Below are positions 6,190-61,601 of a stretch of DNA of 64,000 bases, piece after piece. A program made the translations under genes and the position numbers. Numbering within the stretch: position 1 is the first letter of the stretch; every line of letters starts with the position of its first letter. A model generated the notes under the pieces. That model was given only the letters and a program-made list of their open reading frames with translations, was not told where the DNA came from and searched no databases. Source of the DNA: Candidatus Omnitrophota bacterium (lineage in GTDB: Bacteria; Omnitrophota; Gorgyraeia; 2-02-FULL-51-18); assembly GCA_022072175.1 (NCBI GenBank), contig JAJVIE010000003.1, forward strand, positions 1,134,483 to 1,198,482, written 5' to 3'.

Positions 6190-8045
6190 CAGATCCGCCC
6201 GGTCCGCTCGACAAGCCCGCGGATCAGCGATGTTTCGGCCAGTTTGGTCAGACGCTCGATCGGAGCCGGCAGCACGATCGACCAGTTGGCATCGCTGGTC
6301 ACTCCCGGAAAGTTGATCCGGTAGTCCCAAGCGTCCATACCGGGCAGTTCCGCCGGCGCCAGCCAATCCTGCAGGAGCTGGACACTGAAGACCGACGCGC
6401 TGTTCAGCGAAGCGCCCAGGGCGGCCCGCAAGAACTCAGGCGTGGCGCGCTCGGACGGCGTCCCCTTGAGCCCCACGGCCGACCAATAATCGCTCCGCTC
6501 GCGGGACGTCGACCGGAAGGCCTCGAAGAGCGCCCTCGGCCGATGACCGCCGACCAGCCGAGACAGGGCCTCTTCGCTGTCCAGGGTCTCTTTCCAGCGC
6601 AACCGCCCGTAGCGCGAGCTCTTCTCATCGAACAGCTCGCCCCGGAGCGTTTCGGCGTCGAGCCCGGCCTCGGCGCACCAGCTGGCGAAAGAATACGTAT
6701 CGATCGTGCCCGCCTCGGCCTCCCACCATTGCCGCAAAGGCGAGATATCATGCGTCGAAACGACGCACACGGCGTTGGGGCGGTATTCCTCGGGGGACTT
6801 GAAAGCGGCGCCGGGGCGGTCCCAGTGCCGGCTCCAGCGCTGGATATCGGTACCCGGAAGCCCGGTCTCGCGGAGCAGGGCGTAGGAACAATCGGGCACC
6901 GTGCCCAAGTCCTCGGCCACCGGCAGCATCCTCGTCGAGCTCAGGATGGCCGACAGGATGCGGCGGCCGTGCGCCTCCCAGATATCGGTATCGGGCGGAT
7001 CGAAGGCCCCCTTGCCGCCCGGAGCGTCCTGAAAAGCCCAGACGCGGAAGATCCCCACGAAGTGATCGAGGCGGAAAAGATCGTAGAACGTCTCGGCGTA
7101 CAAGAGCTTGCGGCGGAGATACCGGTAAGCGTCCTTCTCGATCGCCGGCCAATCGTACGGTGGCATCCCCCAACGCTGACCCTCGGCGAAGCACAGGTCC
7201 GGGGGAGCTCCCGCGGCGAGGTCCAATTTGAAATACCGCTGTTCGGCCCAGACGTCGGCGCTGTCGCGCGACACCAGAAACGGCAGGTCCCCCAAAAGAA
7301 GGACGCCCATACGGCCGAGCGCGGCGTGCGCGGCCGCGAACTGCTCATGGCACTGCCACTGCAGCCATTCGTGGTACTCGATCTCGACCGCGCGCTCTCG
7401 CAGGAACGCCTCGTACTCGGCCCCGCTGCGGTGACGGAACGGCTCCGGCCAGTCCCACCAGGCCCGCTGACCGTAGATCGACTTGAGGACCTTGTACTGC
7501 GCGTACGGCCCGAGCCACTCGGCGCACCGGCGGCGGAACGCCGCGAACGCGGCCGGACGCTTGCCCTGCCGATCGAAGATCGATCGCAGCGCTTCGAGCT
7601 TGGCGCGCTTGACGGCGGTATCGTAGCGGACGCGGCCCTGGGGTCCGTACGTACGGCGGATACGGGCCGCCGCCAGACGTCCCGCTCCGGCGCCGCCGCC
7701 GCGCACGGCCCCGAGGCACAGGTGCATCGGCTCGAGCGCGATGGAACTCTCGGCATCGTACGGTCGGAACGTGTAGCCGACGTCGTTCATCGGCAGGAGC
7801 TGGAGGATGGACAGTCCGGCGGCGCGGGCCCATCGACCCAGCGGCACCAGGTCCGGGTACTCGCCGACACCGGCGGAGGTTTCCGAGTAGACGGAGAACA
7901 GGGGTGTGGCCACGCCCGCGCGGCGGCGGGCGCCGATCCGGGACCAATGCGCGCGGGCCGGACCCTGCAGGAAGGACGCGTACACCGTACCTCCGGTGCC
8001 GGTCGCGCGTCGAGCTCGCCTGAGAGATGGTGCTTGTTTGGTCAT
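6189..8045 (-). CDS. malQ: 4-alpha-glucanotransferase (amylomaltase, GH77)
   Basis: SILQLLPMND motif and GH77-length product. Start MTKQAPSL is Met22 of the track ORF. The upstream Met would overlap the divergent gene. Confidence 0.9.
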   Translation of the reverse strand: MTKQAPSLRRARRATGTGGTVYASFLQGPARAHWSRIGARRRAGVATPLFSVYSETSAGVGEYPDLVPLGRWARAAGLSILQLLPMNDVGYTFRPYDAESSIALEPMHLCLGAVRGGGAGAGRLAAARIRRTYGPQGRVRYDTAVKRAKLEALRSIFDRQGKRPAAFAAFRRRCAEWLGPYAQYKVLKSIYGQRAWWDWPEPFRHRSGAEYEAFLRERAVEIEYHEWLQWQCHEQFAAAHAALGRMGVLLLGDLPFLVSRDSADVWAEQRYFKLDLAAGAPPDLCFAEGQRWGMPPYDWPAIEKDAYRYLRRKLLYAETFYDLFRLDHFVGIFRVWAFQDAPGGKGAFDPPDTDIWEAHGRRILSAILSSTRMLPVAEDLGTVPDCSYALLRETGLPGTDIQRWSRHWDRPGAAFKSPEEYRPNAVCVVSTHDISPLRQWWEAEAGTIDTYSFASWCAEAGLDAETLRGELFDEKSSRYGRLRWKETLDSEEALSRLVGGHRPRALFEAFRSTSRERSDYWSAVGLKGTPSERATPEFLRAALGASLNSASVFSVQLLQDWLAPAELPGMDAWDYRINFPGVTSDANWSIVLPAPIERLTKLAETSLIRGLVERTGRI

Positions 8046-8056
8046 TTCTCGTCTTC

Positions 8057-8062
8057 TATAAT
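8057..8062 (+). promoter_or_regulatory. Candidate -10 box (TATAAT) for the AI-2E transporter gene
   Basis: tctTATAATaacagaggccaaacgacccgATG. A perfect TATAAT sits 20 nt upstream of the 8083 start, in the 37-nt divergent intergenic region. Confidence 0.35.
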
Positions 8063-8082
8063 AACAGAGGCCAAACGACCCG

Positions 8083-9144
8083 ATGGAACAAAAAAACCCC
8101 CTCATCACGTATTCGTTCGCGATCCTGCTGCTGTTCGTGCTGTATCAGGTCACGTTGATCCTGTGGCCGTTCTACATCACGCTCTTCTGGTCGGCGATCA
8201 TCGCTTTCGCCTTTCATCCGGCTTACCGGCGACTGGCGGACCGGATGGGTGGCCGCCGCACCGCGGCCGCTCTCCTGGTGACGGTGGTGATCCTGCTGGC
8301 CTGCGCGCCGCTGGCGTCCCTCTTCCTCTTCAGCCTGGTCTCCGAGTCGCTCCGCTCGTACGCGTGGATCTCGGAGAAGATCACCGGCGGTTCGCTCAAG
8401 AGCACTTTCGACTGGTTCGACGCCTTGCCGATCGTCAACCGGTTGGAGTCGTTCATCGGTTTCGACCTCACGCGCGACCACATCAAGCGCTGGATGCTGC
8501 AGGCCGCGGGGTCCGCCGCCAACTACGCCGCCGCGCACGCCGCGACACTCACCCGGGATGTCCTGAGCGGTATTTTCAACTTTTTCCTGACGTTCTTCCT
8601 GGTGTTCTTCATGCTGAGGGACGGCACCGGGATCCGTCGTTTCGTCTATGACCTGACGCCCCTGGGCAGTGACACCAAGGAACAGATCTTCACGATGCTC
8701 GAGGAGACGTTCGCGGCCGTGCTTCGGGGACAGATCCTGACCGCACTGGCCCAATCCCTGGTGGCGGGCCTGATCTTCTGGGCGCTGGGACTGCCTCTGC
8801 CGGTCCTGTTCGCGACGGTGATGTTCTTCACGTCGATGATCCCGGTGCTGGGAGCGACCTCGGTGTGGCTGCCGTTCGTCGTCTATCTGGTCCTGCAGGG
8901 GGCGATGGTCAAGGCGGGGATCCTGCTGGTGCTGGGGGTCTTCGTGATCAGCTTCATCGACAATCTGCTCAAGCCCTGGCTCATCGGGGACAAGACCAAG
9001 CTACCCTACCTCCTGCTCTTCCTGGGCATCCTCGGAGGTCTCCAGCTCTACGGGATCGTCGGGATCTTCATCGCCCCGGCGGTCCTGTCGCTGTTCTTCA
9101 CCCTCATCAAGATCTATCGCGAACAGTTCCTGACGAGCCGCTGA
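8083..9144 (+). CDS. AI-2E family transporter (PerM/YhhT, UPF0118)
   Basis: 353 aa, 8 TM helices. Its 3' end overlaps the convergent gene by 38 nt. Confidence 0.85.
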   Translation: MEQKNPLITYSFAILLLFVLYQVTLILWPFYITLFWSAIIAFAFHPAYRRLADRMGGRRTAAALLVTVVILLACAPLASLFLFSLVSESLRSYAWISEKITGGSLKSTFDWFDALPIVNRLESFIGFDLTRDHIKRWMLQAAGSAANYAAAHAATLTRDVLSGIFNFFLTFFLVFFMLRDGTGIRRFVYDLTPLGSDTKEQIFTMLEETFAAVLRGQILTALAQSLVAGLIFWALGLPLPVLFATVMFFTSMIPVLGATSVWLPFVVYLVLQGAMVKAGILLVLGVFVISFIDNLLKPWLIGDKTKLPYLLLFLGILGGLQLYGIVGIFIAPAVLSLFFTLIKIYREQFLTSR

Positions 9145-10789
9145 GCGGACGCCGTTTGGAGAAGATGGTGTAGAGGTACGGAGCGGCCAGCGCCGCGTAC
9201 AGCACCTGCCTCAACCGCTTGACCAGGCTCAGCGCGATGCCATGGGCCGCGCTGCCGCTCGAATAGGCCGCCAGATACGCCAACCCCTGTTCCTGGGCCC
9301 CGAGATTGTGGGGGATGAAGAACGTCACGGTCTGCACCGCCTGCATCACCTGCTGGATCACGAAGGCCTGCGTCAGCGTGATCTCCACGCCGAAGATACG
9401 GAACACGAAATAGACCTCGAGCAGGAAAGCCGTCCATCCCAGAGCGTGCCACATCGAGGACCTCAGCAGGTCCCCGCGCCGTTCGTTGAGCAACGACCGC
9501 AGTTCCAAGCCCATGAAACCCTTGAGCCGGGCGACCTCCTCATCGGACAAGCTCGAGCCGATCCTCGCGGCCATGCCGGGCAGGAGCTTGGCCAACCCCT
9601 GCCCCGACCCCCACAGGAGCCCCACGTAGATCACCGAGAACACGGTGGCCGCGCCCCCCACCCACAGGATGGCCGCGTCCGCGCCGCGCGCCAGTACGAT
9701 ACCCAGCGCGACCAGCACCACGAGGATCTCGCTGGTGGCGTACACGAGACGGGCGAAACAGATCGCGCGCACGGATTCCTCGAGCGTGGCCAAGCCCTTC
9801 TTGTACACCAGGAGGACCTTGAGCGGCTCGCCTCCGATATCCACGAACGGCGTGATCTTGTTGAACGAATCCCCGGCCAGGAAGATCCCGTACAACCGGC
9901 CGAACGGAATGGAACGCCGCGTCCTCTCGGGAAAGAGGTCGTACAGACCGAGCGTGTACAGCAGGCCTGTCAGCGGGAACACGAGCATCACCAGTCCCAG
10001 GCCCAAGCCGCCCTTGGACAGCAGGCCTCCGACCTCGGACCATGTCACGCCCTTCAGCGCCGACCAGAAGAGCCACAACCCCAGACCCAGGGCCGCGGAC
10101 TTACCCGCCCACAGGAGCGTGCGTCCGGACGACCAGCCGGTCAGCCGCTCCCAATTGGTGACCAGCCGCGTGATCCAGAGGATGTTGATGTAACCGGCCC
10201 CGACCGCCAGGAAGCCGGCGACATTGAGCGTGAGGACCGCCAGCCAGGCCAGGACGATGGAATCGCCGTTGTGGCTGAGCGTATCAAGAAAGGAGAAGAA
10301 GAGGCTTTTCTTGCGTCCCTCGCTGACGCCGTCCGCATGATAGGACGTACTGCATCCGACCGCGCGCTCCCGAACGACGATCAGGGCATGGAGGATCGAT
10401 CCCAGTACGGCCGCGACGTAGAGCTCTTCGGCCGGGAAGTCCCTGAACATCGCGTAATGACGGACGCCGAAGTACGCGCCCGTCCAGAGCGACAGGTCCA
10501 CCAGCAGGTCCGAGAACAGGTCGTACCACTTACCGAAGCGGGTGCGCCAGTCCCGCAGCCGCGCCAGCTCTCCGTCGCAGTTGTCCAACAGGAACGACAA
10601 GTGCAGCCAGGCGACCCCCAAGAGCAGGCAGGTCTGCGTGCCGAACGACACCGTCGCTCCGGCGAACACGCCGCAGAGCAACGCCAGGGTCGTCACGAAG
10701 TTCGGGGACACGCCGGTGCGGGCCAAGAACCGCGTCAGGAGGCCGGAGATCTTGCGGTTGACCTGAAGATAGGGTCTAAGGTCTTTCAT
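9107..10789 (-). CDS. Fusion protein: N-terminal CDP-alcohol phosphatidyltransferase with a C-terminal flippase-like domain (UPF0104 / lysyl-PG-synthase-TM-like)
   Basis: N-terminus carries the CDP-OH transferase signature DNCDGELAR...G...D...D. The remaining ~380 aa are polytopic with glycine-rich helices, typical of the TIGR00374/UPF0104 flippase-like family. Confidence 0.75.
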   Translation of the reverse strand: MKDLRPYLQVNRKISGLLTRFLARTGVSPNFVTTLALLCGVFAGATVSFGTQTCLLLGVAWLHLSFLLDNCDGELARLRDWRTRFGKWYDLFSDLLVDLSLWTGAYFGVRHYAMFRDFPAEELYVAAVLGSILHALIVVRERAVGCSTSYHADGVSEGRKKSLFFSFLDTLSHNGDSIVLAWLAVLTLNVAGFLAVGAGYINILWITRLVTNWERLTGWSSGRTLLWAGKSAALGLGLWLFWSALKGVTWSEVGGLLSKGGLGLGLVMLVFPLTGLLYTLGLYDLFPERTRRSIPFGRLYGIFLAGDSFNKITPFVDIGGEPLKVLLVYKKGLATLEESVRAICFARLVYATSEILVVLVALGIVLARGADAAILWVGGAATVFSVIYVGLLWGSGQGLAKLLPGMAARIGSSLSDEEVARLKGFMGLELRSLLNERRGDLLRSSMWHALGWTAFLLEVYFVFRIFGVEITLTQAFVIQQVMQAVQTVTFFIPHNLGAQEQGLAYLAAYSSGSAAHGIALSLVKRLRQVLYAALAAPYLYTIFSKRRPLSGSSGTVRDRS

Positions 10790-10849
10790 CGCGGGGGTCG
10801 ACTCACGGGACTGAGGTTACCCCCTGAGCGCGAGGATGTCAATTTGGCA

Positions 10850-10885
10850 CAAAAAAAGACCCGCCCCGGCTGTCGGGGCGGGTCC
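10850..10885 (-). terminator. Rho-independent terminator downstream of the OMP gene
   Basis: Minus strand reads GACCCGCCCCGacagcCGGGGCGGGTC followed by TTTTTTTG. Perfect 11-bp stem plus T-run, immediately 3' of the stop at 10899. Confidence 0.8.
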
Positions 10886-10898
10886 GGGCGGCTCGAGG

Positions 10899-11456
10899 TC
10901 AGCCGAAGAGGTACTTGATGCCCCCGCCTACGGCCACGTAATCGAGATCGTCATTGGCGGTCGAACCGCTCGGCAGGTCGCCCGGGTCCGTCCAACTGGC
11001 CTCGAAGTTGAGCGCCCAGTTGGAGTTGACGAACCAATCGACGCCGCCGCCCAACTTCCAAGCGAAAGCCGAATCGTCGCGGTCATCACGGTCCTCGATG
11101 GACGCGTAACCCGAAGCGGCGCCGAGGCCGAGCACACCGTAAGGCACGAACTCCTGTCCCTCGATATGCCAGCGCAGGATCACGTCGCCCATGATGTTGG
11201 CGATACCGACCTCGCCGGGCTCGGACTCATGCTCGCCCTGCTGCCAACCACCCTCCACACCCAAGGCGATCCACGGGGTCACACCGTAAGACATATTGAG
11301 CCCCACATAGGCCGCATCATCGATGGAGTTGTCGTTGAACGCTCCTGCCACGTAGCCGCCCAGATCGACCTTCCCCACGCGGTCGGGCGCCGTAGCCAAG
11401 GCGCTACCGCTGATCCCGAACATCATGACCATGGCCAGAACCGAGATCTTTTTCAT
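10899..11456 (-). CDS. Small outer-membrane beta-barrel protein (OmpW/OmpA-TM-like)
   Basis: Signal peptide MKKISVLAMVMMFGISGSALA, alternating amphipathic strands, C-terminal ...YLFG. AT-rich promoter region at 11457-11517 and a G-rich RBS. Confidence 0.8.
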   Translation of the reverse strand: MKKISVLAMVMMFGISGSALATAPDRVGKVDLGGYVAGAFNDNSIDDAAYVGLNMSYGVTPWIALGVEGGWQQGEHESEPGEVGIANIMGDVILRWHIEGQEFVPYGVLGLGAASGYASIEDRDDRDDSAFAWKLGGGVDWFVNSNWALNFEASWTDPGDLPSGSTANDDLDYVAVGGGIKYLFG

Positions 11457-21926: not shown

Positions 21927-22032
21927 CGTCCCCAAAGGGGGGTTCGAGGACGGATCGCAGCTTGTGCCCCGCGGCGGACCGTCGGGCGGTCCGGCGCTGA
22001 GCTATGTTATAATCTTGCATCCGGAGGCTTCG

Positions 22033-51964: not shown

Positions 51965-53305
51965 ATGGCCGCTCAACAGCCCCTCACCGCGTCACTCTTG
52001 CGCCCCGGACCGCTCTGGGCCGTGCTGGTGGCCGCCGTTCTCACCGCTCAGACCTTCTGGCTCCAGCACGGCAAGGGCGACGAGCTCTTCTACGTGGCGA
52101 CGGCCATGAAGCTCGAAGCCTCCGGCTGGAGCGGCTACTCCCTGCGCGGCGTGGACGATCGCCGAGTCCAGGGCATCTATCGCGAATTCACCCCCGCGGC
52201 CTCCGGAGCCGAGGGAACACTGCTGAGCGCTCTCAAGAAGAGCGGGGCGGTCTACTATGACGCTCCGCTCCTGACACAGCCCCCGCTCTTGAGCCTGCTC
52301 ATCCAGGGCTCTCATCGACTGCTGGACGGCCGCTCGGCGTACCGCATCCTGCCTTTTCCTCTGCCCTTCCCCCGGGATCTCCGCCCCTCCGAGGCCAATA
52401 CCGTCCGCTGGCGTGTCGTGCGCACGCAGTTGTACGCGGCGCTGTGGCCCTTCCTTTTCGGACTGCTTTCGGTCGGAGCCGTGTACGCGCTGACCCTGGA
52501 GCTGAGCGATGACCGCCGGGCGGCCACTTGGGCGTCCCTGCTGATGGCCGCCGCGCCCGAGCATCTGCTGGCCTCCTCCAAGATCTGGGCCGACACCGCC
52601 GTGACGGTCTTGGTGACCCTATCCGTTTGGGCCTGGATCCGCGCTCGAAGATCCGACAGCTCCCCGATGGCCCTGGCGGCCGGAGCGCTGTGCGGTCTTG
52701 CGGCCCTGGCCAAGACCACGGGCTACCTCCCTCTCTTGGTCGTCGCGGCGATGTACCTGCGCGGCCTGGTCCTGAGACAGCGCGAACGTTCGCTCGTCCC
52801 TTTCGCGGTCGGCACCGCGGTCCTTTCGGCCCCGTGGTATCTGTATGTGGCCGCGGTGTACGGCGACCCTCTGTACGTGAACATCCTCTCCCAGCCCGTA
52901 CCCGCGGGTGAGTGGTTCGGAGAGCTGGCCTCCCGCCCTCTCGGCTACTATCTCGTCAACCTGCCGTATCAGACACCGCTGATCCTGGCCGCCGCGGCCG
53001 CTCCGGTGGCGTTGTGGACGGCTCGCACGCCCGGCGCTCGGTCGTTGCTGGCGGCGTGGGTGCTCCTACCGTTGACGGTGCTCTACGCGACCAAGGAAAT
53101 GCGCTACCTGCTCCCGCTCTACCCTCCGCTGCTAGCCCTGGCCGGAGCGGGACTGGAGAGGGCACGGAGATATCTGGACGGGATCCGGCCTCCAACGGGA
53201 TCGCTCGTGACGGCCGCCGCGCTGGCGGCGTCGTTGTTGTGGTCGGCGTCCATCGGCCTGAGCCATGCGGCCGCCGGGTCCGGGCTCATCAAAGCCCCCT
53301 TCTGA
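51965..53305 (+). CDS. GT39/ArnT-like (PMT_2) GT-C membrane glycosyltransferase
   Basis: Polytopic protein with an early DE motif (GDELFYVATAMK) in the first loop. About 12 TM helices. Confidence 0.7.
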   Translation: MAAQQPLTASLLRPGPLWAVLVAAVLTAQTFWLQHGKGDELFYVATAMKLEASGWSGYSLRGVDDRRVQGIYREFTPAASGAEGTLLSALKKSGAVYYDAPLLTQPPLLSLLIQGSHRLLDGRSAYRILPFPLPFPRDLRPSEANTVRWRVVRTQLYAALWPFLFGLLSVGAVYALTLELSDDRRAATWASLLMAAAPEHLLASSKIWADTAVTVLVTLSVWAWIRARRSDSSPMALAAGALCGLAALAKTTGYLPLLVVAAMYLRGLVLRQRERSLVPFAVGTAVLSAPWYLYVAAVYGDPLYVNILSQPVPAGEWFGELASRPLGYYLVNLPYQTPLILAAAAAPVALWTARTPGARSLLAAWVLLPLTVLYATKEMRYLLPLYPPLLALAGAGLERARRYLDGIRPPTGSLVTAAALAASLLWSASIGLSHAAAGSGLIKAPF

Positions 53306-53351
53306 TCCCGGCTCTGGACGCCGGACCTCGCCACGGTTACAATACGCCCCC

Positions 53352-55634
53352 ATGAGCACCGAGACCGCACCGCAACCCCAGCCGGCGATCGAGGAGATCC
53401 TTTCCAAGGAGATCCAGGTCAAGCCGCACCAGGTCTGGGCCGCCATCAAGCTCCTCGACGGCGGCGCGACGGTACCGTTCATCGCGCGCTATCGCAAAGA
53501 AGCCACCGGCGGGATGTCCGACACGCATCTGCGTCTCCTGGCCGACCGTCTCGAGTACCTGCGTGAGCTCGAAAGCCGCCGCATCGCGATCCTGCAGAGC
53601 ATCGAGGAGCAGGGTAAGCTCGTACCCGAGCTCAAGGACAAGATCCTCGCGGTCACGTCCAAGAGCGAGCTCGAGGACCTCTATCTGCCCTTCCGCCCGC
53701 GCAAGCGCACCAAGGCCCAGGCCGCGCGCGAGATGGGCCTCGAACCTCTGGCCGACCTCCTGCTGTCGGGTCAGGAACCGTCCCCTGAAACGATCACCGA
53801 GACCTACGTCCGTCCCGAAAAAGGCGTCTCATCGGTCGCCGAGGCGCTCGGCGGCGCGCGCGAGATCCTCATCGAGCGCTTCGCTGAGGACGCCGCGCTC
53901 ATCGGCGGCCTGCGCCGCAAGTACACCGAGGAAGGTTGGATCCACTCGCGTCTGATCGAGGGCAAAGGCGAGGCGGGCATCAAGTTCTCGGACTATTTCG
54001 ATCACAAGGAGCCCATCAAAGGCATCCCCTCTCACCGCACCCTCGCTTTGTTGCGGGGCCGTCAGGAGGAGTTCCTGCGCGTGTCGCTCGAGCCGGGCTC
54101 TCCGGAGTCCGACGAGACCTACACCGAGACCACCTATGTCCAGCGCGTGGCCGAACGCTTCGGCATCGTCCGTGAGCGCTCGGGCGCCGGTCCTTGGCTG
54201 TGGGAGACCGCCCGGCTGGCCTGGCGGCTCAAGCTCCGTATCCACCTGGAGCTGGACATCCTGATGGAACTGCGCAAACGCTCCGAGGAAGAGGCGATCC
54301 GCGTCTTCGCGGAGAACCTCAAGAACCTGCTGCTGGCCTCCCCCGCGGGCGGCCGCCCCACGCTCGGGCTCGACCCGGGCTTCAGGACCGGCGTCAAGAT
54401 CGCGGCCGTGGACGCCACCGGCAAGCTCATCGCCACGGCGACCGTCTATCCCCACCCGCCGCAGGAGGAGTGGCGTCAGGCCGTGCAGGTGATCGCGACG
54501 ATGATCCAGCGCTACAAGATCGAGCTGGTGGCCGTCGGCAACGGCACCGCCTCGCGTGAGACGGAAAAACTCGCTCTCGAGGCGATCAAGCTCACCGGCG
54601 ACGCCAAGGTCCAGAAAGTCGTCGTCTCCGAGGCCGGCGCTTCGGTGTACTCGGCCTCCGAGCTGGCCTCCAACGAACTGCCCCGTATCGACGTGTCTCT
54701 CAGAGGCGCGGTCTCCATCGCCCGACGCCTGCAGGACCCCCTGGCCGAGCTCGTCAAGATCGACCCCAAGAGCATCGGGGTGGGCCAATACCAGCATGAC
54801 GTCAACCAGACGCGGCTGGCCCAGGCCCTGCACAACGTCGTCGAAGATTGCGTCAACGCCGTCGGCGTGGACGTCAACACCGCCTCGCCGTCCCTCCTGT
54901 CGTACGTTTCGGGTCTCAACAAGCGGACGGCCGCGAGTCTCGTCGCCCACCGGCACGACAAGGGCGCCTTCAAGGACCGGCAGGAACTGCTCAAGATCGC
55001 GGATTTCGGGTCCAAGACGTTCGAGCAGGCCGCGGGCTTCCTGCGCATCCGCGGCGGCGACAACCCCCTCGACGCCTCGGCCGTCCACCCGGAGTCCTAC
55101 CCGGTCGTCGAGCGCATCCTCTCCAAGACCCAGAAACCCATCTCGGAGCTCATCGGCAACTCCACCGCGCTCAAGAAGCTCGACGCCAAGGAGTTCACCG
55201 ACGAGCGCTTCGGTCTGCCGACGGTACAGGACATCCTCGCGGAGCTCGAGAAGCCGGGCCGGGACCCGCGTCCGGAGTTCCGCACGGCGACGTTCAAGGA
55301 GGATATCAACAAGCTCGAGGACCTCAAGCCGGGCATGGTCCTCGAGGGTTGCGTGACCAACGTCGCCAACTTCGGCGCTTTCGTGGACATCGGGGTCCAC
55401 CAGGACGGGCTGGTGCACATCTCCGAGCTCACGGACGGGTTCGTGGACGACCCGCACAAGATCATCAAGACCGGGCAGATCGTGAAGGTCCGTGTCGTCG
55501 AGGTGGACCTGGCGCGCCGGCGCGTGGCGCTGACCCTGCGCTCCGGCCCCGCCAAGCCGAAAGGCCGCGACAGCGGTCCGTCGCGGCCTTCCTCCGCCCC
55601 CAAGACGGGCGGCTTCAACACCCTGCGGATCTAG
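53352..55634 (+). CDS. tex: Transcription accessory protein Tex
   Basis: Start MSTETAPQ... Contains YqgF/RuvC-like, HhH and C-terminal S1 domains (..GMVLEGCVTNVANFGAFVDIG..). Confidence 0.9.
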   Translation: MSTETAPQPQPAIEEILSKEIQVKPHQVWAAIKLLDGGATVPFIARYRKEATGGMSDTHLRLLADRLEYLRELESRRIAILQSIEEQGKLVPELKDKILAVTSKSELEDLYLPFRPRKRTKAQAAREMGLEPLADLLLSGQEPSPETITETYVRPEKGVSSVAEALGGAREILIERFAEDAALIGGLRRKYTEEGWIHSRLIEGKGEAGIKFSDYFDHKEPIKGIPSHRTLALLRGRQEEFLRVSLEPGSPESDETYTETTYVQRVAERFGIVRERSGAGPWLWETARLAWRLKLRIHLELDILMELRKRSEEEAIRVFAENLKNLLLASPAGGRPTLGLDPGFRTGVKIAAVDATGKLIATATVYPHPPQEEWRQAVQVIATMIQRYKIELVAVGNGTASRETEKLALEAIKLTGDAKVQKVVVSEAGASVYSASELASNELPRIDVSLRGAVSIARRLQDPLAELVKIDPKSIGVGQYQHDVNQTRLAQALHNVVEDCVNAVGVDVNTASPSLLSYVSGLNKRTAASLVAHRHDKGAFKDRQELLKIADFGSKTFEQAAGFLRIRGGDNPLDASAVHPESYPVVERILSKTQKPISELIGNSTALKKLDAKEFTDERFGLPTVQDILAELEKPGRDPRPEFRTATFKEDINKLEDLKPGMVLEGCVTNVANFGAFVDIGVHQDGLVHISELTDGFVDDPHKIIKTGQIVKVRVVEVDLARRRVALTLRSGPAKPKGRDSGPSRPSSAPKTGGFNTLRI

Positions 55635-56452
55635 GCCGTCCGCCTCAAGCCCTTCAGCACCCCCGCAAGCGCCAGCGTCACCCCAAAAACGCACACGACG
55701 CTCGCCCCCGTCGGATAGTCCAGGAAGTACGACACGGCCATGCCCGCCAGACTGACGATCGCGGCGATCGTCCATCCGAGGAAGAGTCTCTTGCGAATAT
55801 CCTCGGTGATGAGCACCGCGGCGGCGGCCGGCACCACGAGATAGGCGAACACCAGGAGCACGCCGGCCACGTGCACGGAACACGTCACGACGATGCCGAA
55901 CGTCGCGTAGAAGAGAAAATCCCACCCCCTCACGTTGAGCCCCTCACGGAACGCCCCCTGCGGATCGGCGGAGATCCGGAAGAAAGGCCCGCGGAAGATG
56001 AAGTGCACGACGCCGACCGCCGAATAGATGGCCAGCATCTTGAGCACCTCGTGCGGCCCGGTCAGCAGGATGTTGCCCACGAGCATCTGACGAATGTGCT
56101 CATCGCCCTCGCCGGTCCGGCTGAGCACCATCACCAATGCCGCCGCGGACACCGCGTAGACGATACCGATGAGCGCCTCCTGCGGGATGCGCTGTTTTCT
56201 GAAGCGTGTCAGCGCGAACACCGCCGCGCCGCACACCGTGAAGACCAGCGACATCCCGTAGGCCCAGGCGTCATGGCCGTCGTGACCGAACAACAGCGCC
56301 AGACCCGCGCCCAGCGCCGCGATCTGAGCCAGGGCCAGGTCCACGAAGATGACCTCGCGCTGGATCACATGCAGGCCCAGATAGGCATGGATCCCCGTAA
56401 GGACCAGACAGGCCAGGAACGGCCACAACATGACGCCCAGGAACTCCTGCAT
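55631..56452 (-). CDS. znuB: Metal ABC transporter permease (ABC-3, ZnuB/MntB-like)
   Basis: 273 aa, 8 TM helices, ABC-3 family pattern. Confidence 0.85.
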   Translation of the reverse strand: MQEFLGVMLWPFLACLVLTGIHAYLGLHVIQREVIFVDLALAQIAALGAGLALLFGHDGHDAWAYGMSLVFTVCGAAVFALTRFRKQRIPQEALIGIVYAVSAAALVMVLSRTGEGDEHIRQMLVGNILLTGPHEVLKMLAIYSAVGVVHFIFRGPFFRISADPQGAFREGLNVRGWDFLFYATFGIVVTCSVHVAGVLLVFAYLVVPAAAAVLITEDIRKRLFLGWTIAAIVSLAGMAVSYFLDYPTGASVVCVFGVTLALAGVLKGLRRTA

Positions 56453-57382
56453 CTATTTCAGCGCCTCCGCCAACACCTGAAGGTTACGGTCGAAAAATGC
56501 GAAGTAATCCTCGTTCTCCGCGACCTCTCCGACGTTCTGTGCCACCGTGACGACCGGCACTCCGATCCTGCGGCCGAAGCTCTCCGCGATCCCCTTGGGA
56601 AAGTACGTCGGCATCACGATCGCCTTGACGGCTCCGGACCGAGCGTACTCTTCCAGCTCCTGCAGATGCCGCGGTGTCGGCGGCACTCCGGGCTTGGGTT
56701 CCAGGAAGCGCTCGGCCTTGAGGTCCAGGTAGTCCGCCATGTACTCGAAGTCGTCATGGTACGACAGCACCTCTTTGCCGGAGCAATGCGCGCACAGCAC
56801 CTGCCATTCGGCGAGCTTGGCATCGAGCTTGGCGAGGAACGCCTGATGGTTGGCGTCGTAGACGGACGCCCCCTCCGGATCGATCTCCTTGAGCTTGGCC
56901 AAGATCACTTCGCACATCGGCCGTGCATTGCGCGGATCGAGCGTATAGTGAGGATTGCCGTACAGATGGATATCACCCTCCGCGCGGGACGGTCCCGTCT
57001 GCGGGACCTTGAGCAGCTTGACTTGCGTCGAGACATCCACGGAGCGCGCGGCCCCACGGAAGAACTCCGGACGCCCGGCCGCCTCCACCAGAGGATCGGA
57101 CCACGCCTCCAGGTCCAATCCGGCATTGACGTACAGATCCGCTTTGCGCAGAGCACGCACATCACTGGGTCTGGGCTGGATGTAGTGGACGTTGAACCGC
57201 GGCGAGGCCACATGCCTGACCTCGACGCGTTCCTTGCCGATCTGCCGCACCAGGTCCGCCAGCAGCGACTGGGTCGCGACGACCTGGACCTTGTCCGCGG
57301 CCCTCGCGGCGGTCGGTACCGCCGCCAAGACCATCAGCACCGCGGCAGCGGCTAATGACCGCCATCCTTTGGGTCTGATCAT
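56453..57382 (-). CDS. znuA: Metal ABC transporter substrate-binding protein (TroA/ZnuA-like)
   Basis: Start Met29 (MIRPKGWRSLAAAAVLMV, signal peptide). The longer track ORF would overlap the porin gene by 71 nt. TroA-fold motifs. Confidence 0.85.
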   Translation of the reverse strand: MIRPKGWRSLAAAAVLMVLAAVPTAARAADKVQVVATQSLLADLVRQIGKERVEVRHVASPRFNVHYIQPRPSDVRALRKADLYVNAGLDLEAWSDPLVEAAGRPEFFRGAARSVDVSTQVKLLKVPQTGPSRAEGDIHLYGNPHYTLDPRNARPMCEVILAKLKEIDPEGASVYDANHQAFLAKLDAKLAEWQVLCAHCSGKEVLSYHDDFEYMADYLDLKAERFLEPKPGVPPTPRHLQELEEYARSGAVKAIVMPTYFPKGIAESFGRRIGVPVVTVAQNVGEVAENEDYFAFFDRNLQVLAEALK

Positions 57383-57395
57383 GATCTCCCCCGTT

Positions 57396-58691
57396 CTACT
57401 GAAGTTTGTGCTTGTGTTCGCCGATGGCGAAGGTGCCTTGGACGAAAACACGGTTGTCGTCGTCACCGCTCTGCAGGTCCAGATGCGAGTACTGTACCCT
57501 CCAGCGCGCGTATTCGCTCTGGTAGAAAGTCAGGTACGTGCTGAACCCGCGCTCGGTCTGCTGGGGATTGGCGAAATCCTCACTGGTCTCAATGAGCTGT
57601 ACGTTGTCATAACGCACACCGGTCGCCCACTGCGGCAGGAACCTCCAGTCCAGGAGCGCGTAGCCGCCCCACAGCGAACGGGCGTCATCAAGGTCCTGGT
57701 TGAAGATCTCGCTGGTCGTTTCATCCTCGAGCGGGTAGAACGACTCGCGGCGATTCACATGGTATGCTTCGCTCTGTAGCTTGATATGCCTCTGATCGCC
57801 GTAGCGGTGGATCAGCGTGCCGTCCAGTCCGATGACATTGACCTCGAACGACGAGTCGTCATCGCGTGATCCGACCAGATGCGACACACCCAGCTCCAGA
57901 CCGGTCACGTCATTGAGGTCGACGTAGTTCTTCAAGCGGTTGTAGATCGTCGGATGGCGGCGAGTCTCGCCGAAGAGAGAGCCCTCCTCGCCGTTGCCCC
58001 CCTCCAGCACGCCGAAGGTCCACTCATGGGTCATGTCCCACGGCAGTTCGATCGGACGGGTCAGGTCCACGCCGGTCTTGTTGTACCCGTGATGGCCGAA
58101 GTACTTCTCGAGCACCAGCGGCAGGTCGACCGTATCGAGGGAGTCGCGGTGCACCGGCAGGACCTTGCCGATCTTCGGCAGGAAGCGCCCGATGCGTGCC
58201 GTGAAGTCCAGCGGCAGATCGAAGCGTGTCGCGTACGCTTCCTCGAGGCTCATCTCCTCGAAATCCGCGATACCCAGCGTCACGTCCAAGCGGATGTACG
58301 GGTCTACGGCGCTGCCGAACACGATCTCCACCTCGCGGGCGCTGATGCGATCGGCGCCCTCCTCATCGGACTTCGGACTGTCCGACTGCATGACGATGTC
58401 GGCCACGACGCCGATATCGGGATTCCAGCGGCCGGTCGCTACGCCTGAGGGGCGTCCTCCCGTAACAGGCAGCCACGACGCGGGTCCGGATACCGGCCCC
58501 GAAGAACGCAGGCTCTGCAGCTCTTTCTGCTGTGCATCCACGGTCAGCTTGAGGTCCTTCACGAGCACGGACAGCTCCTGCACTTGAGTGCGCAGGGCTT
58601 CCATTTCATTGGCCCAGGCTTCTTTGGGCGCGGGCAGTCCGGCGCCGCAAGCCAGGCACCAGACCATCGATACGATCAGGGTCTTCTTCAT
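57396..58691 (-). CDS. Putative outer-membrane porin with N-terminal coiled coil
   Basis: Signal peptide, about 50 aa of coiled coil, then an alternating-strand beta-barrel region. GGAGG RBS 6 nt upstream. Confidence 0.6.
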   Translation of the reverse strand: MKKTLIVSMVWCLACGAGLPAPKEAWANEMEALRTQVQELSVLVKDLKLTVDAQQKELQSLRSSGPVSGPASWLPVTGGRPSGVATGRWNPDIGVVADIVMQSDSPKSDEEGADRISAREVEIVFGSAVDPYIRLDVTLGIADFEEMSLEEAYATRFDLPLDFTARIGRFLPKIGKVLPVHRDSLDTVDLPLVLEKYFGHHGYNKTGVDLTRPIELPWDMTHEWTFGVLEGGNGEEGSLFGETRRHPTIYNRLKNYVDLNDVTGLELGVSHLVGSRDDDSSFEVNVIGLDGTLIHRYGDQRHIKLQSEAYHVNRRESFYPLEDETTSEIFNQDLDDARSLWGGYALLDWRFLPQWATGVRYDNVQLIETSEDFANPQQTERGFSTYLTFYQSEYARWRVQYSHLDLQSGDDDNRVFVQGTFAIGEHKHKLQ

Positions 58692-58724
58692 CCTATCCTC
58701 CGTTAGAGTATGGTGGCAAAAGGT

Positions 58725-59048
58725 CTAGAAGTGCGGCGTCGCCGCAGGAGGACCGCGCAGGCTGTTGCGGAGAGAATGCGCGCGGTACGAAGGAGTGTCG
58801 CTGGGCGTACCGACGGCCCAAAGGAAGACCGGGGTTTCGGGTGCGGCCGATTCGATCGAGACGGCCGCCTGCGTAGCGGATGCGGCCTGATGGAGGACGC
58901 ACGAAGAGGCGTGCCCGCTATCGGCCGCGTCATGGAAGTGCGGTAGGAGCCCCACGCCGGAGACGACCAGACATACCAGCGATAGGGCGATCGGCAGGAC
59001 CGGAGAGATGATCCGACGTGAGGGCCTCACGCCGCGCACTCCGCACAC
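58725..59048 (-). CDS. Possible small exported His-containing protein (hypothetical)
   Basis: Signal-like ISPVLPIALSLVCLVVSGVGLL followed by HFHDAADSGH. Lies between zur and the porin gene, overlapping the zur 3' end by 22 nt. Confidence 0.25.
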   Translation of the reverse strand: MCGVRGVRPSRRIISPVLPIALSLVCLVVSGVGLLPHFHDAADSGHASSCVLHQAASATQAAVSIESAAPETPVFLWAVGTPSDTPSYRAHSLRNSLRGPPAATPHF

Positions 59049-59437
59049 TGCCCGTAGAATTTGAAATCATGGTGCGCGATCCTGAAGCGCGTGCGGCGCA
59101 CGAGCTTCTTGCGGAGCTGTTCGGCAAAACATTCCTCGAAGTCCTCGACGGAGCCGCAGTCGGTGCAGATCAGGTGGTGATGATGTTCGCGGTGGGCGTC
59201 GCTCAGCTCGTACCGCTCTCCGTCGACCGTCACATCGACGGCAACGAGCACGCCGAGTTTTTGCAACGTCCTCACGGTGCGGTAAGCGGAGACCAGGTCC
59301 GACCCGCCGCCGGAGAGCCGATGTGCCTCACGCACTGTCAGCGGCCGGGCATGCGAGAAGAACGCCGCAAGAAGACTTGCGCGCGAGGATGTCCAGCGCC
59401 CGCCGGCATCCAAGAGTTTCCGACGGATGTCCTCCAT
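59027..59437 (-). CDS. zur: Fur-family metalloregulator, probable Zur
   Basis: HHHHLICTDCG...CAEC. Best start is Met31 (MEDIRRKLL), which places the 23-bp palindrome about 45 bp upstream. Alternative starts at 59482 and 59527 would read through the palindrome. Confidence 0.8.
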   Translation of the reverse strand: MEDIRRKLLDAGGRWTSSRASLLAAFFSHARPLTVREAHRLSGGGSDLVSAYRTVRTLQKLGVLVAVDVTVDGERYELSDAHREHHHHLICTDCGSVEDFEECFAEQLRKKLVRRTRFRIAHHDFKFYGQCAECAA

Positions 59438-59480
59438 GGCCGGACCGCTGTGCTGCGTTGCGTGTTCGTGGGCGGGTTTC

Positions 59481-59503
59481 ATAATGCAATTGAATTGCAT
59501 TAT
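59481..59503. promoter_or_regulatory. Perfect 11-1-11 palindrome ATAATGCAATT-G-AATTGCATTAT: candidate Zur/Fur-family operator
   Basis: Read directly from the sequence. Located in the zur promoter region, upstream of the zur-porin-znuA-znuB array. Confidence 0.6.
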
Positions 59504-59558
59504 AGACGGCCGGAGGGACCCCGTCAAGACGGCTTCGCTCGAGACCCGACGGCGGACC

Positions 59559-61601
59559 TCACTCCGCGGAGGTCAGCTCCGAGACCCTGAAATAATGCGC
59601 CAGGATCTCCTCGGCGCTCTGGCCGGCCAGCGCGCGGCCTGCCGCTCCGGACTGGCACATCCCGACACCGTGCCCCCAACCGCCGCCGAAGAAGATGTGC
59701 TCCACCGGTGCTCCCGAGGCATCGAAGCGGGTCTCGACCTTGAACAGCGAGCTGCGCAGATCGCCCAGCGCCCGGCGGATGACGAGCTCCTTTTGGATCT
59801 CCACGGCCCCCTCCGTCCCGACGATGCGCACGTGAGAGATATGCCCGGAGCACTTGCGCTCGACGACCTCGATGTGACGTACGCTACCGACGTGCCCGAT
59901 ACGCGCGGCCATCTGGTCCATCTCCTCCGCCGAGTACACGCGGACCCAGCGGAAGCGGCTCGGCTGCGCCTGGATGGGCGCCCCGCAGTGGATACCCTCG
60001 GGTGGTGACTTGATCCATCGCTCAAGGTCCATCGGGGAGAGCGGGAAGATCCAGGGGGCCGCTCCGTCGGGGGACCCGCGCAGGTACGGCACATCCTCTC
60101 CGGCTCCATAGATATTATCCTGCGTGTGTCCTCCGCAAGAGCTGGAGTACACCGCGTCGATCGGTCGCCCCTCGTGCAAAAGCACGCGCCCAGCGGTCTC
60201 ATCGACGAGCTGGCAGACCTTGCGCGTCTCGCGGCTGGTCCCCGAGTAGACCTGACAGTGCGTCTCGGCGCATAGGTCGTATCCGTCCATCGCGTGACGC
60301 GCGATCTTCCTCAATGCCTCGGAGCGCGCGGCGATGGCCTGGGCCTTGAGCGCCTCCTCGGGCCACAATGCCGACATCTCCGACGGGACGACGCCGTACA
60401 GGTAGGATTCGAGATCGATACGGTTGATGACGGTGACGCCCGTCCCCGCCGAGGCCAGAAGCTCCAGATCGCCGCGGTACGAGCGGTCCTCGCGCTTGGC
60501 CCAGAAGTCCCCCCGGCCGGCCTCGACGTCGTAGAGCGTGAACACGCCTCCCGGTGCGACCGATTCCAGCCGCGCCGGGGCCAACACCCAATCCTGGCTC
60601 CGTGCCTGGCCGGAGACGGCCTCGATGAGCAATCTCCCCTCTCCGGCGGCGCTGATACGATAACGCGTGCCGGCGCGGCGCAAAGGCCCGTCCGACCGCC
60701 CGTGACGGACGATCCTGAAATCCGAGCTGAAGGAGAACTCCGCGGAGCGCACGTCCGTCCCCAGGCCGATACGGATGATCTTGGAGGTCTTGGGATGGGC
60801 GGGCTGATGCATGACGCGCGGTGCGGCGGCCGGCTCGGCGGCCCGGCGCGGGAGCTTGCGCCGCAACAGCGACAACCTTGCCCGCATGCTCTTATCGTCG
60901 GGGTAGAGCTTGAGGGCTCTCTCGTAGGCGACGACGGCTTTGGCCGTGTGTCCGGCCTGATCGTGCAGCTGGGCGACGATCCGGCGGGTCGAGCGGAGAC
61001 TGGGATCGATGCGCAGGGCCTCCGTGTAGTGCCTCAAAGCCCGGTCGATCTCACCGTGTCGCCGGAAACTCTCGGCCATCTCCAGATGAGCCAGCGTATC
61101 GTTGGGATCGGCGTCCAAAGAGCGCTTGAGCCACTTGCGGGCCTCGCGCTCCTTGTCCTGGCGTCTGAGCGTCAACGCCAGCGTGCGCATCGCGTGCGCG
61201 TCGGAGGGATCGCGGGCCAAGATCCCGCGCGCGACATGAGCCGACTCACGGTGCTGTCCGTTGAGATAATGCACCCAAGCCAAGAGGCGTGAGACCTCGG
61301 ACAGCTCGGGCTCCTCCTCCAAGAGCCCGCCAAGCGTATCGATGGCCTCGTCGTAGCGTCCGGCGTCCTTGTGCGCGACGGCGCGGTTGAACTCCGAGCG
61401 GATCCTGCGGTCGCGGAAAAGCTCCGCGCTCTCCGCCAGATAGGCCGGAAGATCGGCCTCGGTCATCGCGCTCGTCATCTTGAGCGGTGTTGCCCCGGGC
61501 TCGGCCAGGACGACGGAGCCATATGGTTGCGATAAGGCCAGGATGAGCAGAAGTGCCGACGTCTTGCGGGGGATCGTCAAGCGGATGGTCGCATACTCCA
61601 T
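59559..61601 (-). CDS. TPR-repeat plus SpoIID/LytB-domain protein
   Basis: Signal peptide, about 5 TPR repeats, C-terminal SpoIID/LytB motifs (CQVYSG..., SSSCGGHT). Confidence 0.85.
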   Translation of the reverse strand: MEYATIRLTIPRKTSALLLILALSQPYGSVVLAEPGATPLKMTSAMTEADLPAYLAESAELFRDRRIRSEFNRAVAHKDAGRYDEAIDTLGGLLEEEPELSEVSRLLAWVHYLNGQHRESAHVARGILARDPSDAHAMRTLALTLRRQDKEREARKWLKRSLDADPNDTLAHLEMAESFRRHGEIDRALRHYTEALRIDPSLRSTRRIVAQLHDQAGHTAKAVVAYERALKLYPDDKSMRARLSLLRRKLPRRAAEPAAAPRVMHQPAHPKTSKIIRIGLGTDVRSAEFSFSSDFRIVRHGRSDGPLRRAGTRYRISAAGEGRLLIEAVSGQARSQDWVLAPARLESVAPGGVFTLYDVEAGRGDFWAKREDRSYRGDLELLASAGTGVTVINRIDLESYLYGVVPSEMSALWPEEALKAQAIAARSEALRKIARHAMDGYDLCAETHCQVYSGTSRETRKVCQLVDETAGRVLLHEGRPIDAVYSSSCGGHTQDNIYGAGEDVPYLRGSPDGAAPWIFPLSPMDLERWIKSPPEGIHCGAPIQAQPSRFRWVRVYSAEEMDQMAARIGHVGSVRHIEVVERKCSGHISHVRIVGTEGAVEIQKELVIRRALGDLRSSLFKVETRFDASGAPVEHIFFGGGWGHGVGMCQSGAAGRALAGQSAEEILAHYFRVSELTSAE

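Follow-up and report, generated by a model that had tools for sequence, protein, structure and literature searches.

A candidate Zur operator at the promoter of a predicted metal-uptake operon without a linked ATPase gene in an Omnitrophota genome

The palindrome beside described metal-responsive operators

Canonical Zur boxes differ in architecture among bacteria (about 23 bp in E. coli, 7-1-7 in B. subtilis and cyanobacteria and 9-1-9 in actinobacteria), and they are bound by dimeric, zinc-loaded repressors of the Fur family and overlap the core promoters of znuABC, COG0523 and TonB-receptor genes (PMC6103462). Another type of box was predicted by Rodionov et al. (2004), who proposed the Zur_D box ATGCAACnnnGTTGCAT for znuABC-zur in two Desulfovibrio genomes, one of the predicted sites being ATGCAACtgaGTTGCAT (PMC545781). 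Here we describe a site comparable to these in an Omnitrophota metagenome-assembled genome (MAG), in a stretch of 64 kb that was analysed as a whole and is called the window below. The palindrome ATAATGCAATTGAATTGCATTAT, at window positions 59481-59503, very probably serves as operator for the Fur-family repressor encoded next to it, which is most likely a zinc-sensing Zur. The site is placed on the promoter of what would be an autoregulated operon of five genes.

The palindrome has the architecture ATAATGCAATT-G-AATTGCATTAT, a perfect 11-1-11 inverted repeat with 100% complementary arms and a spacer of 1 nt. It lies in the gap 59438-59558, between the stop of a SpoIID/TPR gene (59559) and the ATG of the reading frame that begins MEDIRRK (59437), at a measured distance of 43-44 nt from that ATG. 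The preliminary description had reported a perfect 11-1-11 palindrome some 45 bp from this start, and the sequence, the complementarity of the arms, the uniqueness of the site and the distance all bear it out. The palindrome has a G+C content of 22%, against 66% for the window. By chance, a window would hold about 0.26 palindromes with arms this long if composition is disregarded, and about 7e-6 if no more than two G:C pairs are allowed. No second match was found in the 64-kb window even when 3 mismatches were allowed, and 100 dinucleotide shuffles of the window gave no match at all. The palindrome is thus genuine and far above chance; a chance origin is excluded by its uniqueness and the expectation of about 7e-6 for so few G:C pairs, and a repeat element is rejected because neither the window nor any related contig has more than one copy.

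The closest described counterpart is the Desulfovibrio Zur_D box ATGCAACnnnGTTGCAT (PMC545781). The operator core of the window, ATGCAATtgaATTGCAT, and the Desulfovibrio core ATGCAAC-N3-GTTGCAT, both predicted sites, have 15 of the 17 bases of the 7-3-7 arrangement in common, including the central tga of D. desulfuricans, and the cores differ only in a symmetric change, C>T/G>A. Each stands at the promoter of a zur-znu operon. The window site differs in that ATAA/TTAT flanks extend the palindrome to 23 bp, and its operon, in an Omnitrophota MAG, begins with the regulator and includes a porin and a small ORF while lacking znuC. With the canonical Zur boxes the site shares the form of an AT-rich (pseudo)palindrome of 15-23 bp at a core promoter, but its half-site is TGCAA and not of the TGTTAT or TCGTAAT types, which places it in a different specificity class. 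The Fur box GATAATGATAATCATTATC has in common with the window site the outer hexamers ATAATG...CATTAT and a binder of the Fur family (binding here being predicted); in the window, however, these hexamers are 11 nt apart instead of 5 nt and the neighbours are zinc genes, not iron genes. On this spacing we rejected the 19-bp Fur box architecture, whose consensus is given in PMC545781.

Elsewhere in the 64-kb window we found no second good operator site, so that within these 64 kb the regulon named in the preliminary description amounts to one operon. One half-match to the operator core, ATGTTATAATCTTGCAT at 22004-22020, has 2 mismatches (0.46 such matches expected by chance) and is intergenic, upstream of a small CxxC ORF (ATG 22034, plus strand) and, on its other side, next to a DksA/TraR-like ORF with a CxxC...CxxC motif (21484 to about 21900, minus strand). 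For the most part this half-match appears to resemble an extended -10 box.

The operon and its promoter

Gene and domain annotation, together with a promoter scan, gave the following features around the palindrome, from upstream to downstream of the operon.

59559-61601, minus strand: SpoIID/TPR protein gene, the upstream neighbour
59522-59527, minus strand: -35 hexamer TTGACG of a predicted sigma-70 promoter (promoter scan)
59499-59504, minus strand: -10 hexamer TATAAT of the same predicted promoter (promoter scan)
59481-59503, no strand: candidate Zur operator, perfect 11-1-11 palindrome with the conserved core TGCAA-N5-TTGCA
59027-59482, minus strand: Fur-family regulator, putative Zur (PF01475, E 7e-18), 151 aa from the conserved ATG
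58725-59048, minus strand: small conserved ORF (maximal extent), motif-bearing, with a signal/TM segment
57396-58691, minus strand: outer-membrane porin-like protein of 431 aa with signal peptide, coiled-coil helix (residues 26-63) and beta-barrel
56453-57382, minus strand: ZnuA-type cluster A-I substrate-binding protein of 309 aa (PF01297, E 4e-50), start from an independent gene call
55631-56452, minus strand: ZnuB-type ABC-3 permease of 273 aa (PF00950, E 2e-34)
53265-55634, plus strand: Tex, convergent and overlapping the ZnuB stop

The order Fur-family regulator, small ORF, coiled-coil porin, ZnuA and ZnuB, followed by convergent Tex, is the one that the preliminary description had given. 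From the regulator to ZnuB the genes overlap or are separated by gaps of 0-33 nt, a tight packing from which transcription as a single unit is plausible. The operon shares with the ZnuABC importer a three-His binding protein of cluster A-I and an ABC-3 permease; it differs in having no ATPase gene and in the porin and the small His/Cys-motif protein that precede ZnuA and ZnuB.

The regulator carries two CxxC pairs, invariant as befits a structural Cys4 site, and an HHHH motif. Against the curated model of E. coli Zur (NF008646) it scored 16.9 bits, well short of the cutoff of 167, and the Fur and PerR models of NCBIfam outscored the Zur model yet stayed below their own cutoffs. Sequence comparison with PDB entries places it at about equal distance from the solved Fur, Zur, Nur and PerR structures. 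It represents a divergent branch of the Fur family, for which the Zur label rests on the context and on the type of operator.

In the binding protein, three His align with the His ligands of AdcAII (3cx3) and are invariant in nine homologs from related cassettes. Among cluster A-I proteins a set of three His is of the zinc type, the manganese/iron type having Glu at the third position. Scored against NCBIfam models, the protein matches AztC (zinc) and MntC (manganese) about equally well.

In the small ORF the motif PHxH(D/G)..D..H....C.(V/L)(H/Y)Q is accompanied by a second hydrophobic region and, at the C-terminus, by LR(G/A)PP; the ORF is 60-72% identical in the four close relatives (L001-L004). 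It matched no Pfam or NCBIfam family and may be a membrane-anchored protein that handles metal. The porin was modelled with AlphaFold (pLDDT 79), which gave a signal peptide, a long helix at residues 26-63 and a beta-barrel, and Foldseek matched the model to OmpM1, chitoporin, OprP/OprO and DcaP with E values of 1e-9 to 1e-11. The earlier identification of a coiled-coil porin downstream is supported by these models at the level of fold. The predicted barrel resembles the 16-stranded trimeric porins of the DcaP/OprP type, and a long mature N-terminal helix is also present in DcaP; unlike these, the window protein has only 8-13% identity to them, belongs to no Pfam porin family and ends in a His/Lys-rich tail, GEHKHKLQ, instead of an aromatic residue. 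No Pfam barrel family was matched among more than 400 homologs of the porin; the 431-aa protein itself matched no Pfam family and is 100% identical to a hypothetical protein from a 'Candidatus Omnitrophica bacterium' MAG. The tail itself (window 57396-57430) is conserved in the family as ..FAIGEHKHKLQ, without the usual aromatic last residue.

On the minus strand, the promoter scan identified TTGACG-17-TATAAT, which agrees with the sigma-70 consensus at 11 of 12 positions. The first five bases of the palindrome are the last five of the -10 hexamer. From the position of this hexamer, with a start about 7 nt downstream, transcription would begin at about 59492, the centre of the palindrome. A second promoter-like match, at 58719-58690, was weak and was dismissed, its -10 box abutting the start codon of the porin.

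The ATG common to the window and to the four close orthologs (73-91% identity) is at 59482 (MKPAHEH...), and the palindrome ends on the A and T of this codon. Besides these two bases, the palindrome takes in most of the -10 box as well as the predicted transcription start. The Met of MEDIRRK (59437) is not conserved, the four close orthologs having Ile or Leu there, and an independent gene call of the window's own regulator gene gave 151 aa. The regulator thus likely starts at ATG 59482 and not at MEDIRRK. The preliminary description had favoured MEDIRRK and held that the longer starts are unused. The second part stands for the two longest starts only (TTG 59527 and ATG 59500), which are excluded because the ATG common to the orthologs is 59482; the choice of MEDIRRK itself does not agree with the conservation. 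From ATG 59482 the leader would be only about 10 nt long, with no Shine-Dalgarno sequence. Three automatic calls of the regulator (P0001-P0003; L004 566, L002 2747 and L001 10001) begin at MQFNCIM... and give 157 aa. The ATG of MQFNCIM is inside the -10 hexamer and therefore upstream of the predicted transcription start, and these starts have probably been mis-called by six codons. The analysis thereby offers a correction of the regulator's start codon, several automatic calls beginning inside the -10 box.

Conservation, recurrence and competing readings of the site

We aligned the window with the intergenic regions of the contigs carrying four regulator homologs of 73-91% identity (L001-L004). 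Two blocks are invariant in these four promoters and the window, GTCTTGACG in the -35 region and CTATAATGCAA..CA.TTGC.TTATGA, which comprises the -10 box and the operator; the spacer and the flanks on both sides carry many substitutions. A metagenome scan with the Zur alignment yielded 4 loci, of which one was useful (L133). Its regulator ortholog is 46% identical, the gene order is that of the window, and it keeps TCTTGACG at -35 and TGCAA-N5-TTGCA at the same spacing, the outer ATAA/TTAT being lost. Five orthologous promoters, from loci with 46-91% protein identity, therefore keep the -35 box and TGCAA-N5-TTGCA unchanged amid flanks that diverge, and in all of the six orthologous loci (6/6) a Fur-family regulator gene lies directly downstream of the site. 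In aligned sequence, an invariant -35 box and core amid diverged flanks is a classical footprint of a promoter plus operator.

A search of species-representative genomes with ATAATGCAA-N5-TTGCATTAT (18 specified bases) returned at least 120 loci, and no close relative of the window locus was among the matches listed. Of these, 43 loci fall in long ORFs of low-G+C genomes, mostly in the Peptidase_M24 motif GNNANVLHY, and many others form the tips of long hairpins, an outcome to be expected by chance when the query is a palindrome. The coding motif, which contains the 23-bp pattern in L011, L017, L025 and about 30 other Bacteroidota loci (..GNNANVLHY..), inflates genome-wide counts of the palindrome; with the hairpin tips it makes raw counts uninformative, so that only the flanking genes were analysed. 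Among the matches listed, 96 ORFs flank 77 exact non-coding sites in unrelated genomes, and the commonest Pfam families in these ORFs are FUR (6) and CobW/COG0523 (5), followed by the TonB receptor and the ABC ATPase (3 each) and by ZnuA and ZIP (2 each). Since these families each make up about one thousandth of bacterial genes, the enrichment is very large.

Individual loci were checked. TonB receptors of Nitrosomonas have the motif upstream, and so do ABC ATPases of Cupriavidus and Pigmentiphaga and, in Verrucomicrobiota, Paceibacterota and Bacteroidota, genes of COG0523. A Pseudomonadales MAG has it in the interval that separates a ZIP gene from a divergently oriented Fur-family gene. ZnuA-homologous ORFs follow it within about 150 nt in two MAGs, one of Proteobacteria and one of Pigmentiphaga, and a MAG labelled Actinomycetota carries it ahead of a Fur-family gene with ZnuA next in order. 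The association with zinc genes holds in either orientation. The class of TGCAA-N5-TTGCA boxes appears widespread from these sequences: so far only predicted in Desulfovibrio, it turns up beside zinc genes in other genomes too, among them some labelled Betaproteobacteria, Verrucomicrobiota, Bacteroidota or Paceibacterota. Full-text literature searches that paired the motif with Zur, or looked for porins tied to zinc in Omnitrophica, retrieved nothing beyond PMC545781. Two of the matches, at L005 1036-1058 (Nitrospirales) and L051 336-358 (Hydrogenedentota), have in common the extended flanks cgtc[tc]ATAATGCAATCnGATTGCATTATagacga; the former is 17 nt upstream of a gene for an AAA_14/DUF4143 ATPase, a gene not connected with zinc.

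Regarded as a Zur box, the palindrome is an AT-rich inverted repeat within the range of 15-23 bp, overlaps a predicted core promoter, precedes a Fur-family gene and the ZnuA and ZnuB genes, is conserved amid diverging flanks and, in other genomes only, stands upstream of further families of the Zur regulon. The overlap with the promoter, the footprint, the match to the Desulfovibrio box and the enrichment of zinc genes all agree with the Zur-box reading of the preliminary description. We infer a mechanism, with Zur binding the site, zinc as the effector, transcription beginning within the palindrome and the five genes co-transcribed, that would operate as follows. A zinc-loaded Zur dimer, or two dimers, would occupy TGCAA-N5-TTGCA and the ATAA/TTAT flanks, and the bound repressor would cover the stretch from the -10 hexamer through the transcription start to the start codon, excluding RNA polymerase. 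In zinc-replete cells the single good promoter of the operon would be shut, for the uptake genes and for the regulator gene itself; on zinc depletion the repressor would leave and the uptake genes would be transcribed. Such a switch is of an ordinary kind in a little-studied phylum and does not overturn the current understanding of zinc homeostasis; what it provides is a concrete operator and promoter candidate for metal regulation in Omnitrophota, a phylum without genetics.

An unlikely competitor keeps the Fur-family operator and changes the metal, the regulator being a Mur-, Fur- or Nur-like sensor of Mn, Fe, Ni or Co and not Zur. It is consistent with a regulator that matches no Zur equivalog and whose weak best matches are the Fur and PerR models, with a binding protein that fits the AztC (Zn) and MntC (Mn) models about equally, and with the genes adjoining related cassettes, which include FTR1, FeoAB, TonB genes or a CsoR/RcnR gene. 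The third ligand of the binding protein is nevertheless His and not Glu, and the three His are invariant in the cassette family; the motif in other genomes flanks COG0523, ZIP and ZnuA genes, which are hallmarks of zinc; and the site matches the predicted Zur box but not the spacing of the Fur box. These observations favour zinc at the window locus; for the cassette family as a whole zinc is a less certain substrate, because some cassettes adjoin iron-uptake genes.

It is improbable that the palindrome belongs to an unrelated transcription factor or is an AT-rich promoter element or repeat that plays no part in regulation. The pattern does also arise as a coding motif of M24 peptidases and, in many genomes, as the tip of a long hairpin, but it occurs once in the window and once in each related contig, its conservation reaches well past the -10 hexamer, and the gene directly downstream in the 6/6 orthologous loci encodes a cognate, dimeric regulator of the Fur family.

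Least probable of all is an RNA hairpin, serving either as terminator or attenuator for the SpoIID/TPR gene or as a 5' structure that controls translation of zur: the minus-strand RNA does fold into an 11-bp stem (-14 kcal/mol, z = -2.5), in which the single arm substitution of L003 would retain a G-U pair, but no U-tract follows the stem, the predicted start in the middle of the palindrome would deprive the zur mRNA of the 5' arm, inner pairs are lost in L001, L002 and L133 with no compensation, so that the orthologs conserve sequence and not pairing, and the association with zinc genes is independent of orientation. An Rfam scan of 58600-59700 at E<=1 gave no match, and an intrinsic terminator was rejected, as the stem is AT-rich, has no T-run and was not called by the scan.

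Related cassettes without a linked ATPase gene

The preliminary description had remarked that no znuC is linked to the operon. We found no ZnuC-type ATPase in the operon, in the 64-kb window or beside nine related cassettes, so this absence is itself conserved. The only ABC ATPase of the window, at about 40.2-41.1 kb, is paired with the membrane protein of an ABC-2 exporter. The nine further lineages examined all have the module of small ORF, porin, ZnuA and ABC-3 permease; in them a Fur-family gene is located upstream, located downstream or absent. The distant cassettes have in common, in the small ORF, the motif PHxH(D/G)..D..H....C and LR(G/A)PP. In L125-L132 the window-type operator motif is absent at up to 4 mismatches.

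A conserved uptake cassette of four genes without a linked ATPase is the more unusual aspect of the locus. We tentatively propose, as a possibility of rather low probability, that the operator controls one copy of a widespread, undescribed metal-uptake cassette that spans the envelope and is consistently ATPase-less across Omnitrophota and other uncultured lineages. If this were true, the cassette would imply an obligatorily shared nucleotide-binding subunit or an unusual mode of energisation, together with an outer-membrane route for zinc that is based on a porin and not on TonB.

The cassettes of L125-L132 and L138-L142, at about 7600-11000 in each, have 48-68% porin identity and no adjacent ABC ATPase. 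A small ORF precedes the porin in every cassette, for example at 7677-7964 in L125, 7660-7953 in L126, 7650-7937 in L129 and 691-996 in L133. In one lineage, that of L127 and L128 (7377-7399, 7388-7666), the cassette is translationally coupled to a gene of the CsoR/RcnR family and is followed by a CzcCBA-like RND pump. The CsoR/RcnR-family gene is preceded there by AGTATCCCCCCATGGGGGATACT, which we take to be an RcnR-like operator, and as read from these sequences this lineage represents a different regulatory logic for the same cassette.
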